This document shows positions 5,210 to 63,690 of a stretch of DNA of 64,000 bases, in pieces (position 1 is the first letter of the stretch; each line of letters opens with the position of its first letter). The notes beneath the pieces are model-generated. The model did not search any database, was not told the origin of the DNA, and saw only the letters and a program-made list of their open reading frames with translations. Made by a program: the position numbers and the translations under genes. The stretch is from NCBI RefSeq assembly GCF_045037415.1, contig NZ_CP173440.1. The stretch is one strand, 5' to 3'. This DNA is from Escherichia coli. GTDB taxonomy: Bacteria > Pseudomonadota > Gammaproteobacteria > Enterobacterales > Enterobacteriaceae.

Positions 5210-5462
5210 TGTTGAGATTATTGAATTATCTTCAACCTACAGGCGATGACCAAAATTAGTAATAAAAGTAACTTTTTCCTGATTGCGACGCTAGTGCTAT
5301 CATACGCGCACAAAAAACATACCAGCACTACCGTTTGCTTTGTTATTACTCCACTTGATAAGTGAACTATACACTACGCGTCACGAGAATAGAGAGTTGA
5401 CAGGAGCTAAACTCTATCCCACTGTATATACCATTTCATACAACGAAAAGAGTGATTTGCGG

Positions 5463-5744
5463 TCATATCTGTCGCCTCATCTTCGAAATAGGGTTATTCC
5501 AGGCATCAATATCTTCCTGAATCACCCTGCCGTTACCACCGCATAACATACAACCGGATAGAAGGCCGTAACACTCAGGGCATTTTTCGAATGGCCCAAA
5601 CTGGCGCTTCCATTTTAGCAGTGCTGCTCGCTTGCCCATTTCTTCAATGGAGGGCATCATTTCACCTCCTGTGGGGCGGCTGCGAGCATGGCTTTGTATG
5701 TGCCTTTTGATGAAGGGTTCTTGGTGGCCATGTAGTGCAGCCAC
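5463..5744 (-). CDS. hypothetical small zinc-ribbon-like protein
   Basis: CPEC...CMLCGG cysteine pairs. Probable start MMPSIEEM overlaps the stop of the upstream gene, suggesting translational coupling. Confidence 0.35.
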   Translation of the reverse strand: MAALHGHQEPFIKRHIQSHARSRPTGGEMMPSIEEMGKRAALLKWKRQFGPFEKCPECYGLLSGCMLCGGNGRVIQEDIDAWNNPISKMRRQI

Positions 5745-6643
5745 CCGGCATCAATCATCTCTTTTGTCGGTTCCTTCGGTAACATCACGTAACCAGGAGG
5801 TGCTACGTAGCGAACTTCCACTGTTCTGTCAGCACCTGTTGCCTGGTCAATGCCAATTACCGGAGAGTTGACTGCCTGGAGCATAGCGGCCCGGAAAGCG
5901 TTCCAGGAATCAGCGGCCGCATTTCGCTGGTCTTCATCCCACTGGAATACAGCGTGGTCACGACGCCTGGCGCTGGCAAGAATCTCGATACTGTCCGGAG
6001 TAGCTTCTTCCGGCACTACCAGCGTTGGCTGAGGGGCGGCGAAAAGTTCGTGCACACCATCAGGGCACATTTGACCGCCCTTTACAGTGCATACCGCCAC
6101 TGGCTCAGCCTCCACCTTCATGCCATTTGCCAGCAGAATAGTGATAGCGCGAGTTAATGCCATGCGCTCACCACTTTGAAGAATCCGAGCAGCCTCTGCG
6201 CACGAGGACTCTGCTGAACCGGCACGTTCAAGAAGATTTTTTACGTTATTTTCGTATACTCTGCAGTCTTTATCCAGCTCAGCAATACGCTGCAGGGCCT
6301 TCTCCAGTGACTCTACCAGCGCATCAACGTAACCAGCGGCACGAAGGGCAAACGCCGTGATTGATAGCTCTGCGTCAGTTTCTTGCCCGTAGCTTTCGCA
6401 TTCCGAGACAACTGCAAAATAGTCGGAGTCGATCTCGTTATTTGCCAGGTGGCGTAGCAAATTGGCCGTTTCATTTCCGTTTGCGATGAGTAGATCATGG
6501 CTCTGCGGTTGTTCGGTGATATCGGTTCTCTTGCTGCACTCAAATGAATTGTTCATGGTTATATTCCGTATGAGAACGTGCGACCTAGAAAAGTAGAAAC
6601 ATGTCACTGTAAACCAGGTTATCATATTAAAACGTTCCTGCAA
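5657..6643 (-). CDS. hypothetical protein (~300 aa)
   Basis: Long ORF; probable start MNNSFECSK at ~6556. An AAAGTAACTTT palindrome lies just upstream. Confidence 0.5.
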   Translation of the reverse strand: MQERFNMITWFTVTCFYFSRSHVLIRNITMNNSFECSKRTDITEQPQSHDLLIANGNETANLLRHLANNEIDSDYFAVVSECESYGQETDAELSITAFALRAAGYVDALVESLEKALQRIAELDKDCRVYENNVKNLLERAGSAESSCAEAARILQSGERMALTRAITILLANGMKVEAEPVAVCTVKGGQMCPDGVHELFAAPQPTLVVPEEATPDSIEILASARRRDHAVFQWDEDQRNAAADSWNAFRAAMLQAVNSPVIGIDQATGADRTVEVRYVAPPGYVMLPKEPTKEMIDAGWLHYMATKNPSSKGTYKAMLAAAPQEVK

Positions 6644-6893
6644 CTCCTATTATCTTATCATTTATAAAGTAACTTTCTGGATTTATAAGGTGGCAACCTT
6701 CTGTAAAGTTGGATGACTAAAAGCGAAGCTTTGTAGTGTGGAGGAAGTATTAACTTAAGTGGATAATTTTAAAAATCAAGGCAAACACTCGAAAAAAACC
6801 TCGGATGATAAAAGCATTTTTTATTAAGCAGGCCTTCGACCTGCTTTTTCGGAATGAGATAAAATGAAAGCTTCATTATCGCTGGTGGGAAAA

Positions 6894-7235
6894 TTAAATA
6901 TCGTCGTCAGGAAACTCTTGCTGGATGGCATGGACCAGTTCAACCTTATGCTCACGAGTTAAATCACCCCATGCAACTTTAGCCAGTGGCGCTTCGCCAT
7001 CAGTTGTTGCTTCAATATATGACCATAATTTTCTGTAAAGTTCTTGCCCCACCCCATCGAGACATTCAGCTACTTCATCCACTGTCCAGTGGTTCAGAAG
7101 TTCTGGCATAGCTATGTCATTACCAGGGCAATCGTCTGAAGAACAAAGGTCTGCGTCATGATAAATGCGACCGCAATGAACGCACTCAAAATTTGATAGA
7201 GGAATTTTTGGTACAGATACATTACTCATGATCAT
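6894..7235 (-). CDS. hypothetical protein with N-terminal Cys/His cluster
   Basis: 113-aa ORF; CVHCGR...CSSDDCPG. Confidence 0.45.
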   Translation of the reverse strand: MIMSNVSVPKIPLSNFECVHCGRIYHDADLCSSDDCPGNDIAMPELLNHWTVDEVAECLDGVGQELYRKLWSYIEATTDGEAPLAKVAWGDLTREHKVELVHAIQQEFPDDDI

Positions 7236-7312
7236 ATCTCCAATATTAAGTTTCCTGCTTTATAAAATACAATGACGTCAGAACCCGGATACTACCAGTG
7301 CGGTGATATCCG

Positions 7313-7528
7313 TCATGTTCGCCCCCGTTTCAATGCCTTGTGAATTTGCTGCATCTGCCGCAACGTACTTGCATGACCCTGCCTCGGATGACATCCGCTA
7401 AACTTGGTATGTTCGCGGTCGTAGTCGTTAATTAAATCTTCCATTGCGGTGATGGCCAACTCGATTGCACTAGCAGCAGCTCGTAACTTTGCTCTTCTAT
7501 ATTCTTTTACAACGGTGGAATCATTCAT
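7313..7528 (-). CDS. hypothetical small protein
   Basis: 71-aa ORF, basic and helical. Confidence 0.3.
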   Translation of the reverse strand: MNDSTVVKEYRRAKLRAAASAIELAITAMEDLINDYDREHTKFSGCHPRQGHASTLRQMQQIHKALKRGRT

Positions 7529-61365: not shown

Positions 61366-61887
61366 AAAACTCGCACTAAACATGGTTCAAGACCCGGGTA
61401 CGATGCCGATATAAGTCACTTTTTTGTACGCGGTGAAAAGTCACTTTGTTGAATGTTTGAAAATGGGGGCTTTGAGGAGGCTTTCGAATATTTATAATGA
61501 GAGACTGTTAAAGCTGCTGGTGGATCTGACATGACATTTCTCAAATCTCTGGACTCGCCGCCGTTCATCGCAACATATCGTTGGGCGGGGTCATTCGATG
61601 GACGGTATATGCCACAGGCATATTCGCTTTTGCTGGAACTGAATCAACACACGTATCTGCCGGTGGTTAAAGCCGAGTTTGATATCTGTATCATCAGCTG
61701 CGGTAAGGAGTGGTGGCGCTTCAGGCTGGTGGATGTGAAATCTGATGAACGTCAGGAAGGAATGGTAACCCGGACGGCATACCGGCTAAAACCGTCAATG
61801 GGGATCGCTGAGCAAATGGTTAACATGATCCGCGCCTGGCAGTCCGTACCGTACCTTAATCCTCCTGCATCTGACTACTTTAGGTAA
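61366..61887 (+). repeat. 0.52 kb duplicated module, copy B
   Basis: Direct repeat of 40729-41251. Confidence 0.85.
61531..61887 (+). CDS. hypothetical protein, paralogue B
   Basis: 118 aa, near-identical to the 40895-41251 product. Confidence 0.55.
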   Translation: MTFLKSLDSPPFIATYRWAGSFDGRYMPQAYSLLLELNQHTYLPVVKAEFDICIISCGKEWWRFRLVDVKSDERQEGMVTRTAYRLKPSMGIAEQMVNMIRAWQSVPYLNPPASDYFR

Positions 61888-62360
61888 AGCGTACCTCGCA
61901 GACAGCGACGTGAACGACGCAAAGAACATTCTTGCGGCAGGACATTGCCGTCTGGCTGCAGGAATCCCCGTCCTTTAGGGCGGGGAGGATGTCAACCGTT
62001 CCGCCAGGGCAGATTTGCTTAACCCAGCCTTTTATCGCATGTCGTACAGTATTTCGACCAGTGACAGTTCTTTAACTGCTCTTTGGTAAGCCCGGATTGC
62101 CTCCGGGGAGTTGAGCAGACTTTCTTTGACCCGGTTAAATGGGATGCCTTTTACTTTCATTAGCTCATCTCCTTCAGGTGCTTTCTCGCTATCTCTGCGA
62201 TCCGCCTGATGACTGGGAAAACCTGATCACTGAACCTGGAGCATCTACTTTGTTGATACATTATACTGTGGGTTTTTCCGTCCGGAACTGACAAAATGCT
62301 ACACTTCGGATTAAAATACATTAGGGAAGATAGTATTTAGAAAGTGATGGGGAAATTATT

Positions 62361-62973
62361 ATGTTTAAAGAGATTAAAAAATGGTTTGTTAAGGGCGTCA
62401 ATTATGAGACTGAGTTCATCGCAGCCGTAAAGCGATCCAAGAAGTGGAAACTTGAAGTTCCTAATATCTCTTTAAAAAAGACTCCATTTCTTGCTGGGGA
62501 AAGGGCTGCTATAGCTTTAAAAGTTATTCAGGACTATGCTTCAATGCATAGCCCGGAGGAAGTATCTCAACAATGTTTTGGGTATATGTATGGAATTCAG
62601 AGTGCTTTGGAAAACGCTTTACAAACTCCACTATATTATACATTAGGTTATATTGAATTTGAAAAGAGAACCAGTGTTTCATACAGAAATTCCAAAATTA
62701 GAAAGGAATTTGTATAATCCAGTTTCAGGCGTTGGGGCGATTGATTTACATGCCTGGCTGACGACTCCTAATCTTGAAATCATTGATCTTACTTTCGCAA
62801 CAACATATGGTATTGTGAATGATATTCCATCAGTAATTGGACGTTCTTCCTTTCAACATTACTCTGAGTTTAATGATAACATGGTCTATCATCCTCAATT
62901 AATCGGCGACGATTATTTGAAGAAGATTGGAGCCATCGTTGATTATAGTTCGTTGAATATTATTATTACGTAG
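62361..62973 (+). pseudogene. AT-rich gene apparently split by a frameshift
   Basis: Two overlapping ORFs (62361-62717 and 62653-62973) in different frames; overlap falls in an A-rich tract (gaaaagagaacc). Both halves are AT-rich. Confidence 0.3.
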
Positions 62974-63108
62974 TGCAGATAGCTATCGGTTATTATATAA
63001 CTAGGGGCATTCCTTGTTTTATCAGGCGCTTTGTAAATGTTTTCCTTCAGGGGGTGATATAAGGCGGGTTTTACGGTTAACAAAGCACCTTATTTTCTGA
63101 ATAACGGA

Positions 63109-63423
63109 TTAATAACGCTCAAAATCATATTCTCGGTCAAAATCATAGTTTTTGCCTAGATTTTCATGAAGAGCCTCAACCCTTCCTTCATTTTGATGAG
63201 ACGGTCTCTGTATAGAAACATGAATTCCAGATACACCGGACGAAGCCTCAAAACCTTTAGCCTGTTTTGCGGCAGCACAAGATTGTTTTCGGTTTTTAAG
63301 AACTTTCTGTAAGCCTAGTAAAACGATGGAGAAGGCAAACAGCCCATAAAAACAATAAGTTACATAATCCCAATGCAGAAAATTAGCCATTGTGTATCTC
63401 ATATTTATAGTTGTTGAACACAT
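63109..63423 (-). CDS. hypothetical small membrane protein
   Basis: Probable start MANFLHW; TM helix YCFYGLFAFSIVLLGL; preceded by the conserved upstream cassette. Confidence 0.4.
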   Translation of the reverse strand: MCSTTINMRYTMANFLHWDYVTYCFYGLFAFSIVLLGLQKVLKNRKQSCAAAKQAKGFEASSGVSGIHVSIQRPSHQNEGRVEALHENLGKNYDFDREYDFERY

Positions 63424-63463
63424 TAGAGCCTATCGTCCTTGTATAGCCCTTAGCCTCTCTCAT

Positions 63464-63690
63464 TTGATTACATTATAAACTATTTAACCCAGCCTCCAAC
63501 CCCCTGTTTTCATCACCCCCGGATGCAGCCTCAACTCTAAAAGGGGGCTTTACAGGCCATAGTCCATGGTGTATCCGTTGATACACAGTTGTTATCGCTG
63601 ACTGGCTATGAAAAACAGTCGTTGTTTATGCGCTGCACAGGCCCGGAAAGTTACTTTTTTCTCAGCCATCGAAACAGCACCCCGGCAGTT
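63464..63690. repeat. conserved upstream cassette, copy 2
   Basis: Direct repeat of 61043-61280 with the same internal palindromes. Confidence 0.8.

Follow-up and report, generated by a model that had tools for sequence, protein, structure and literature searches.

Why should one 11-bp palindrome recur some thirty times along a stretch of DNA, and what protein, if any, reads it? The question arises from 64,000 nucleotides of Escherichia coli DNA (contig NZ_CP173440.1 of assembly GCF_045037415.1; hereafter the window), in which a first-pass annotation noticed about 30 copies of the palindrome AAAGTNACTTT and took them for the regulon-wide operator of a plasmid-encoded DNA-binding protein, or else for the sites of a partition or modification system. 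Our computational analysis supports the first of these proposals: the palindrome is specific to the plasmid backbone, selected, enriched between genes and present across IncHI plasmids, and these plasmids encode a candidate reader of the KorB/ParB class; that a protein binds it is inferred. Our reading, to which we give a probability of about 0.55, is that R-AAAGT-N-ACTTT-Y constitutes an operator set across IncHI backbones, read by one or more orphan ParB-family proteins in the manner of KorB or Noc.

A dispersed palindrome confined to the plasmid backbone

The window is DNA of an IncHI1B/IncFIB (pNDM-MAR-type) conjugative megaplasmid with a MOBH relaxase, an F-type mating-pair system and type IV-A3 CRISPR-Cas. 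A complete relative, CP031372.2 (pKpvST101_5, 210,661 bp), matches it except for a single inversion and the insertion of an ISL3 element. We counted exactly 30 perfect matches to AAAGTNACTTT in the window, whereas 100 dinucleotide-preserving shuffles gave 0.08 on average and never more than 1, which confirms the first observation. Twenty-seven of the positions first listed were exact and three are corrected here (40361 instead of 40371, 55382 instead of 55381 and 61437 instead of 61438). The aligned flanks extend the site to 13 bp, R-AAAGT-N-ACTTT-Y, with A or G at position −1 in 28 of the 30 sites and T or C at position +11 in 27; across the 30 aligned sites no conservation was found outside these two positions.

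On CP031372.2 we counted 84 perfect sites, where Markov models of order 1–4 predict 0.5–0.6, an over-representation of about 150-fold for a motif with 10 to 12 specified bases. The outer positions are R at 81 and Y at 78 of these sites, and 71 of them have A or T in the centre. None of the 84 falls in the ~38 kb of IS26/armA/msrE/mphE accessory DNA and, in the window, none of the 30 falls in the ISL3 copy (17823–19163), the region of the IS110-like open reading frame (ORF; 21.3–22.4 kb) or the group II intron (~29.6–32 kb); the motif thus belongs to the backbone, as had been surmised. One-mismatch variants number 31 on the full plasmid, with about 13 expected, but they are equally dense in the backbone (25 in 173 kb) and in accessory DNA (6 in 37 kb) and so do not amount to a genuine halo of near-sites. 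Sites are all-or-none, either perfect or absent.

Annotated coding sequences occupy 68% of the backbone, yet 55 of the 84 sites (65%) lie outside them (P = 2e-10); for 20 of these 55 a start codon follows within 130 bp, compared with a background of 24% (P = 0.03). The concentration in 5' and intergenic regions claimed at first therefore holds statistically, but not for every site: the other 29 are intragenic, about 100 times the chance expectation, and eight of them are in the window (25074, 42341, 44058, 44386, 47749, 55382, 57632 and probably 61227). Two local groupings that had been pointed out are real, one adjoining repB (17579, 19306, 19477, 19594 and 20161) and the other in the oriT region, within the mobI–trhR spacer (51440 and 51542).

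Two other classes of repeated sequence were tried and rejected. A miniature inverted-repeat transposable element, repetitive extragenic palindrome or other interspersed repeat is ruled out because nothing is conserved beyond −1 and +11 over the 30 sites, only 61227 and 63647 sharing a flank. The motif, being a perfect palindrome, carries no strand information and hence is not an orientation-biased signal such as Chi, an FtsK-orienting polar sequence or an uptake sequence.

The palindrome is shared by IncHI plasmids and both its arms are conserved

Around the relaxase genes of increasingly distant IncHI relatives, AAAGTNACTTT was again the most over-represented palindrome. There were 19 sites in 43 kb of pKp6001 (relaxase 77% identical), 23 in 41 kb of pKP13f, 12 in 42 kb plus 11 in another 50 kb of the IncHI2 plasmid R478 (relaxase 39% identical) and 14 in 42 kb of an IncHI1 plasmid (relaxase ~40% identical), while the IncHI1 archetype R27 has 46 in 180 kb. 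Across the family the backbone thus carries a site roughly once per 2–4 kb, and the motif is family-wide on IncHI1, IncHI2 and pNDM-MAR-type plasmids, whose hosts include Salmonella, Escherichia, Klebsiella, Serratia and Enterobacter. No site was found in the ~24 kb of Tn10, tricarballylate/citrate and insertion sequence (IS) DNA of R27, in 81 kb from two IncC plasmids (also MOBH), or in a ~60-kb sample of host chromosome (50 kb of E. coli K-12 and the ~10-kb K. pneumoniae flank of our locus L008). Literature searches and full-text checks found no description of the motif or of an IncHI ParB-like regulator.

Pairs of diverged plasmids allowed us to follow individual sites. Between R478 and the IncHI1 plasmid (74% DNA identity), all seven alignable sites keep the ten specified bases, as do only 6% of random 11-mers (P = 3e-9), and the central base has changed in three of the seven. 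Between the window and pKp6001 (84% identity), nine of 12 sites are kept, compared with a background of 23% (P = 2e-4), four of the nine with a changed centre; in the mobI–trhR spacer, two sites stand as perfect islands amid flanks only 39% identical. Intergenic and intragenic sites are both among those conserved. Arms kept far above background around a drifting centre provide, in these alignments, direct evidence that purifying selection acts on both arms, and the motif is almost certainly a protein-binding site that is functional, under selection and specific to IncHI backbones.

Orphan ParB-like proteins as candidate readers

The cognate protein had been sought either among the small unannotated proteins of the window or outside it. 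The former idea is not supported, since no ParB-like family gene occurs in the window; the best candidate, of the ParB/KorB family, is encoded beyond its left end. This protein, paralogue A, corresponds to a 413-aa ORF of CP031372.2 (134206–135447), ~1 kb left of the window, and is preceded by the plasmid's largest cluster of sites, six in the 870 bp upstream. Its IncHI1 orthologue, a 401-aa 'DNA-binding protein' (36% identical, E = 2e-74), has two sites upstream, at ~95 and 213 bp; for the R478 orthologue the distances are 91 and 218 bp, and for that of R27 (92336–93541, WP_000108722.1) 100 and 218 bp. The motif was found upstream of the ParB-like gene in every lineage with a close homologue.

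A word-indexed homologue search reached close relatives only, whereas an exhaustive HMMER search retrieved 255 family members. In an alignment of 83 sequences, R52, G101 and R104 are invariant, within the segments 'GFNxR' and 'DGHCRxRA'. The family profile matches ParB/Spo0J (E = 4e-17), Noc (1e-15) and KorB (9e-8) in the PDB, covering both the N-terminal and the helix-turn-helix (HTH) domains; 63 of the 83 members match Pfam HTH_ParB (PF17762), and the 413-aa query itself matches a ParB-like family of PHROGs (1e-23). An AlphaFold2 (AF2) model of paralogue A has a predicted local distance difference test score (pLDDT) above 96 over residues 20–255, with a helix at residues 19–26; an acidic linker that is disordered connects this part to a helical C-terminal domain. 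All its top Foldseek matches were ParB, KorB or Noc (probability 1.0), the best, with a template-modelling score of 0.66, being KorB in its co-complex with KorA (8QA9). Profile and model together place the candidate in the ParB family, in which a ParB/Srx domain at the N terminus precedes a ParB-type HTH.

The pNDM-MAR-type plasmids, R27 and R478 all encode paralogues A, B and C. Paralogue B is split by an IS element in CP031372.2 (66140–68383), where it is unannotated, and is intact in pKP13f (L138 19944–21122). In R27 it lies at 45191–46348 (WP_001281654.1), next to a Dam methylase, and the third paralogue at 40890–41966 (WP_001015069.1). Judged by gene order, R27 paralogue B is probably R0042, annotated as a 'partition protein' in the study of that plasmid (PMC7366339). 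Sites precede B-type genes by 117 bp in CP031372.2, 43 bp in a metagenome contig (L017), 125 bp in L147 and 8 bp in L144, and no parA adjoins paralogue A, B or C. In remote family members from GC-rich backgrounds (L145, L146), neither the motif nor another enriched palindrome was found nearby. Taken together, the sequence evidence makes it somewhat more probable than a coin toss that the reader is one or more of these orphan ParB-like proteins.

Several other features were seen around these genes. A second palindrome, TTTCAC-N6-GTGAAA, occurs once per plasmid (CP031372.2 134096–134113 and R27 92154–92171), in both between the motif sites and the start of paralogue A, and may be a gene-specific operator of another regulator. 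In R27 (44007–48288), L017 and L147, a Dam-family methylase, a divergent paralogue B and a DUF4942 protein make up a three-gene module, and in L016 an N6/N4 methyltransferase adjoins a P0056-type paralogue. The paralogue A segment with its six upstream sites is also found within two complete K. pneumoniae chromosomes, CP073782.1 (L007) and CP128442.1 (L008), through either plasmid integration or misassembly.

A possible mechanism and the direction of regulation

By analogy with KorB, ParB and Noc, a ParB-like dimer would recognise each perfect palindrome through its HTH domains and close into a nucleotide-dependent sliding clamp; clamps from ~50–90 loading sites would then control most backbone promoters, including those of the tra operons and of the candidate's own gene. 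Binding by the ParB-like proteins and their use of cytidine triphosphate (CTP) are both inferred, the latter being uncertain because GHCRxRA takes the place of the P-loop-like motif GERRxRA. Since ParB-type sites must catalyse clamp closure, site quality that is all-or-none would fit such a reader. KorB clamps reach promoters by sliding from remote loading sites (PMC11790492), and similar behaviour here would account for the upkeep of intragenic sites.

At three promoters, those of the DUF4942 gene (site 13234), the gene at 61531 and paralogue A, a site is followed after 24–26 nt by a module resembling −35 and −10 elements, GGGGnTTGATG-N16-TATCCT or a variant with TATAAT, so that the site is centred near −68. 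About ten further sites lie 14–60 bp from a start codon, with the promoter likely on their far side. The direction of regulation is not settled, because the −68 sites suit activation and the 14–60-bp sites repression. KorB-like repression is somewhat favoured, and we put an outcome of global repression at a little under even odds; anti-silencing or activation, as by VirB or BisD, is possible by analogy. The GGGG(n)TTGATG-N16-TATCCT module itself occurs three times on the plasmid (window 13180–13212, − strand, and 36136–36167, + strand; CP031372.2 134117–134149). The copy at 36136 has no motif site in front of it and precedes a 324-aa ORF (36231–37205) that is unannotated in CP031372.2.

Weighing the ParB-like reader against other explanations

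A number of observations weigh against a ParB-like reader. The 413-aa query alone falls below Pfam thresholds, and single-sequence Pfam, NCBIfam and PDB searches with it gave nothing significant. Its arginine patch is GHCRxRA, not GERRxRA. The link to the motif rests on co-occurrence and upstream sites, and ~25 other genes also have upstream sites; paralogues B and C of R27, moreover, have no perfect site directly upstream. Every motif-positive context that we found is IncHI-like, and by phyletic pattern the ParB-like proteins are therefore indistinguishable from the rest of the IncHI core proteins. Comparing recognition helices among the paralogues did not single out a motif reader. The spacing between sites is random-like (coefficient of variation 1.01), so nothing indicates selection for even clamp coverage, and a site centre near −68 at three promoters fits a classical activator equally well.

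This last point bears on a rival in which the motif is the operator of the IncHI conjugation circuit, bound by TrhR/TrhY or HtdA, with the ParB-like genes mere members of the regulon. In R27, mutation of htdA derepresses 139 of 181 expressed genes at 25 °C, both tra and non-tra backbone genes, and leaves the transposition, citrate, tetracycline, parAB and mucAB genes unaffected, and the study defines no operator for the HtdA/TrhR/TrhY regulon (PMC7366339). Our R27 sites likewise cover the backbone and spare the accessory genes, none lying upstream of any named unaffected group (a comparison by named gene groups, not gene by gene, as the RefSeq record has no R00xx ORF numbers). This agreement supports the motif as the operator of a backbone-wide regulon and by the same token raises the TrhR/TrhY/HtdA rival, as do the sites that flank trhR and mobI and precede tra operons and the −68 centre upstream of a weak −35 element, which is typical activator geometry. 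On the other hand, no DNA-binding domain was detected in the HtdA, TrhR or TrhY orthologues in Pfam, NCBIfam or PHROGs (an AF2 model of TrhR from eight sequences, pLDDT 58, was too poor for a fold search), and HtdA is reported to counteract TrhR/TrhY at the protein level (PMC7366339). A classical activator also leaves unexplained the 29 perfect intragenic sites, several of them conserved, and the all-or-none site quality. Short metagenome contigs with only the Dam, ParB-like and DUF4942 genes keep the motif as well, though as fragments they are weak evidence. We consider binding by this circuit unlikely, if worth keeping in view. A host protein recruited to the plasmid, for example a nucleoid-associated or cell-cycle factor like MatP at matS or SlmA at its binding sites (SBS), might account for conservation across plasmids of five enterobacterial genera, and host factors with 12–13-bp palindromic targets are known. 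The motif matches no E. coli factor target known to us, however, and the chromosomal samples, small as they are, contain no site; with a plasmid-encoded ParB-fold candidate available that has sites upstream of its own gene, a host reader seems very unlikely.

The partition and modification readings of the first-pass annotation fared worse. Centromeres are the classical targets of ParB-family proteins, and several parS sites may occur on one large replicon, but the parAB operon (CP031372.2 75726–77983) is flanked by its own gtgaaaACAACCCCGTTGTtcgcag array, with ~19 tandem copies upstream of parA (72395–74885) and two downstream of parB (78235–78313), presumably the true centromere of this type Ia ParAB system, whose ParB is 336 aa long. 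In the corresponding test of the motif as a ParABS centromere, a ACAACCCCGTTGT array was found to flank parAB and the motif to be missing from 69.4–78.6 kb (AAAGTNACTTT is absent from 69391–78657). The motif is, besides, dispersed rather than clustered, and the candidate ParB-like genes have no adjacent parA. The partition reading is rejected because parAB has a tandem array of its own, and the chance that the sites are parS is very small. A plasmid DNA methyltransferase, restriction-modification or self-marking system could be suspected, since IncHI backbones have several orphan methyltransferases (the Dam-family enzyme beside paralogue B and the N6/N4 enzyme beside the P0056-type paralogue) and the core GTNAC is shaped like a type II site. 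No link between the motif and any such system was found, however. A specified palindrome of 11–13 bp far exceeds known methyltransferase sites and contains no GATC or CCWGG; restriction-modification targets are usually avoided, whereas the motif is strongly enriched; and intergenic, promoter-proximal placement is unexpected for a modification mark. This reading we regard as highly improbable.

Likenesses to and differences from known ParB-like systems

The operator of KorB (OB) on the IncP-1 plasmid RK2, TTTAGC-S-GCTAAA, has two 6-bp arms around one free base. Both it and the IncHI site are perfect 13-bp palindromes with 6-bp arms and a free centre, dispersed on the backbone with some copies at promoters and others far away. 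Like KorB, which is a ParB-CTPase and a global repressor (PMC11790492), the IncHI candidate is plasmid-encoded, combines an N-terminal ParB domain and HTH with a long disordered acidic linker and a C-terminal domain, and has its own gene under motif sites. The differences are also marked. The IncHI motif is unrelated in sequence to TTTAGCSGCTAAA; there are 46–84 sites per plasmid compared with 12 on RK2, and one third of them are intragenic. The candidate is an orphan without an IncC/ParA partner, on plasmids that have a separate type Ia ParAB with its own centromere and two or three ParB-like paralogues. Its arginine patch departs from GERRxRA, no KorA/TrbA-like partner was identified for it, and its binding and repression are predictions.

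Noc, which has ~70 Noc-binding sites (NBS) along the chromosome of Bacillus subtilis, blocks division by tethering DNA to the membrane and is no transcription factor. The IncHI candidate resembles it as an orphan ParB paralogue apart from the true partition ParB and with tens of dispersed palindromes; NBS are more degenerate, in contrast, and the IncHI replicon is a plasmid with sites enriched near gene starts. Expression of IncHI genes is silenced by H-NS/Hha, and an anti-silencer role for the candidate is conceivable by analogy with VirB, acting at virS on the Shigella pINV, and BisD of ICEclc. These ParB-like proteins are CTP-dependent activators or anti-silencers (PMC10770331, PMC12409273). 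They too have a ParB fold, are found on mobile elements and act at a distance, and a site centre at −68 would suit activation. Their sites, however, are few, compared with 50–90 on IncHI plasmids, and unrelated in sequence, and the many IncHI sites 14–60 bp upstream of a start codon better suit repression.

The IncC plasmids p1002-NDM1 (L139 284–27450) and R16a (L014 6736–27583) have a perfect, dispersed intergenic palindrome of their own, aCTTTCACATGTGAAAGt, with seven copies in 40 kb of IncC DNA, of which one precedes parA by ~60 bp. Their ParB-like proteins are a ParB with a KorB domain and, encoded apart from it beside a methyltransferase, an orphan ParB. At 16–18 bp, aCTTTCACATGTGAAAGt has no free central base and is less dense than the IncHI motif, and the KorB-domain protein is paired with ParA, unlike the IncHI candidate.

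Site positions and further occurrences of the core

All sites in the window are listed in the table. Compared with CP031372.2, window positions 1–21299 are inverted and correspond to the plasmid segment at ~113.2–133.2 kb; the inversion probably reaches ~137.4 kb of that plasmid, past the left end of the window. The ISL3 copy, which is ISCfr12-like, sits inside the site cluster beside the RepFIB repB gene. The type IV-A3 CRISPR-Cas locus spans 22929–28397. Besides the ~70-bp flank common to sites 61227 and 63647, a ~530-bp segment is duplicated at 92.6% identity (40726–41252 and 61361–61888), and both pairs are local duplications within the backbone.

Table. Copies of the palindrome in the window and one associated promoter-like module. 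Genes are given with their strand in brackets.
Feature	Window position	Strand	Context	Position in CP031372.2
Site	5265–5275	.	Intergenic; ~109 bp upstream of small (−) gene 4955–5161	127947
Site	6666–6676	.	Intergenic; ~114 bp upstream of 299-aa (−) gene (~5658–6557, called in L007)	126546
Site	7777–7787	.	Intergenic; ~254 bp upstream of small (−) gene	125435
Site	11469–11479	.	Intergenic; 107 bp upstream of (−) gene 11116–11367	121743
Site	13234–13244	.	113 bp upstream of DUF4942 gene (12257–13126, −); then N26-TTGATG-N16-TATCCT	119978
Promoter-like module GGGGGTTGATG-N16-TATCCT	13180–13212	−	26 nt downstream of site 13234; consensus resemblance only	
Site	15479–15489	.	Intergenic, with a (−) gene on either side	117733
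Site	16285–16295	.	16 bp upstream of small (−) gene 16068–16274	116927
Site	17579–17589	.	RepFIB-side cluster, cut off from its remainder by the ISL3 insertion 17823–19163	115633
Site	19306–19316	.	RepFIB-side cluster	115232
Site	19477–19487	.	RepFIB-side cluster	115061
Site	19594–19604	.	RepFIB-side cluster	114944
Site	20161–20171	.	~60 bp past 3' end of repB (20234–21385, −)	114377
Site	25074–25084	.	Within type IV-A CRISPR dinG/csf4 helicase gene	141224
Site	29475–29485	.	Intergenic, between CRISPR array and group II intron	145686
Site	34919–34929	.	Intergenic; ~176 bp upstream of (−) gene	151131
Site	38429–38439	.	36 bp upstream of 355-aa gene 38470–39537 (+)	154641
Site	40361–40371	.	Intergenic	156573
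Site	42341–42351	.	Within S49 peptidase gene; kept in pKp6001	
Site	44058–44068	.	Within 365-aa tra gene; pKp6001 keeps arms, centre T to C	
Site	44386–44396	.	Within same 365-aa tra gene as 44058; lost in pKp6001 (1 mismatch)	
Site	47749–47759	.	Within MobH relaxase gene traI; pKp6001 keeps arms, centre G to A	
Site	51440–51450	.	mobI–trhR (oriT-region) spacer, 117 bp upstream of mobI; perfect in pKp6001, flanks 39% identical	
Site	51542–51552	.	mobI–trhR spacer; perfect island in pKp6001, as 51440	
Site	52786–52796	.	~80 bp upstream of trhY-like gene; kept in pKp6001, centre A to T	
Site	55365–55375	.	End of trhF, 31 bp ahead of trhH start; R478, IncHI1 and R27 have a site here too	
Site	55382–55392	.	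Pair partner of 55365; 14 bp ahead of annotated trhH start	
Site	57632–57642	.	Within traG/trhG; lost in pKp6001 (1 mismatch)	
Site	61227–61237	.	~70-bp paralogous flank in common with site 63647	
Site	61437–61447	.	89 bp upstream of gene 61531–61887 (+); then GGGGGCTTTGAGG...TATAAT promoter-like module (61437–61498)	
Site	63647–63657	.	Intergenic; ~156 bp upstream of large helicase gene starting near 63807	

Scanning 100,044 species genomes for paired sites shed no light on relatives of IncHI: the matches listed came mostly from unrelated AT-rich genomes, and among them none of at least 120 paired-site loci encodes a member of the ParB-like family. Two unrelated genomes carry the core in repeated form. 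A 13,976-bp scaffold of the cyanobacterium Tolypothrix campylonemoides (JXCB02000056.1, L125) has eight dispersed copies of the extended palindrome tTGAAAGTSACTTTCAtttt and encodes no ParB-like family member; use of the core there is either unrelated or convergent. An Acidobacteria metagenome-assembled genome (JAFDVJ010000004.1, L115 590–768) has nine head-to-tail 21-bp repeats, each containing AAAGT(C/T)ACTTT, an iteron- or centromere-like array.

Implications for IncHI plasmids

IncHI plasmids are major carriers of multidrug resistance, including that of typhoid (HI1), mcr-1 and mcr-9 (HI2), and NDM together with hybrid virulence–resistance plasmids (pNDM-MAR type), and their conjugation is temperature-controlled by a circuit of HtdA, TrhR/TrhY and H-NS/Hha that affects most backbone genes. 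A speculative and rather doubtful extension of the ParB-like reading, drawn by analogy, is that orphan ParB-CTPase clamps, two or three per plasmid, control IncHI megaplasmids wholesale from perfect palindromes in genes and spacers, that the thermosensitive HtdA/TrhR/TrhY regulon has its missing operator in the motif, and that HtdA or TrhR/TrhY act as clamp-locking or clamp-releasing partners, as KorA and TrbA do. If true, this would resemble the long-range silencing by KorB, but with far more closely set sites and decoupled from partition. The ParB-like reading, should it hold, would also extend ParB-clamp regulation from the 12 sites of RK2 to a partition-independent system of 50–90 sites on plasmids of 200–400 kb. 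The motif is in addition usable as a simple, specific marker of IncHI backbone within mosaic plasmids. A selected, family-wide palindrome and a concrete candidate of the KorB/ParB class thus offer an experimental handle on a circuit that has been without a defined operator.

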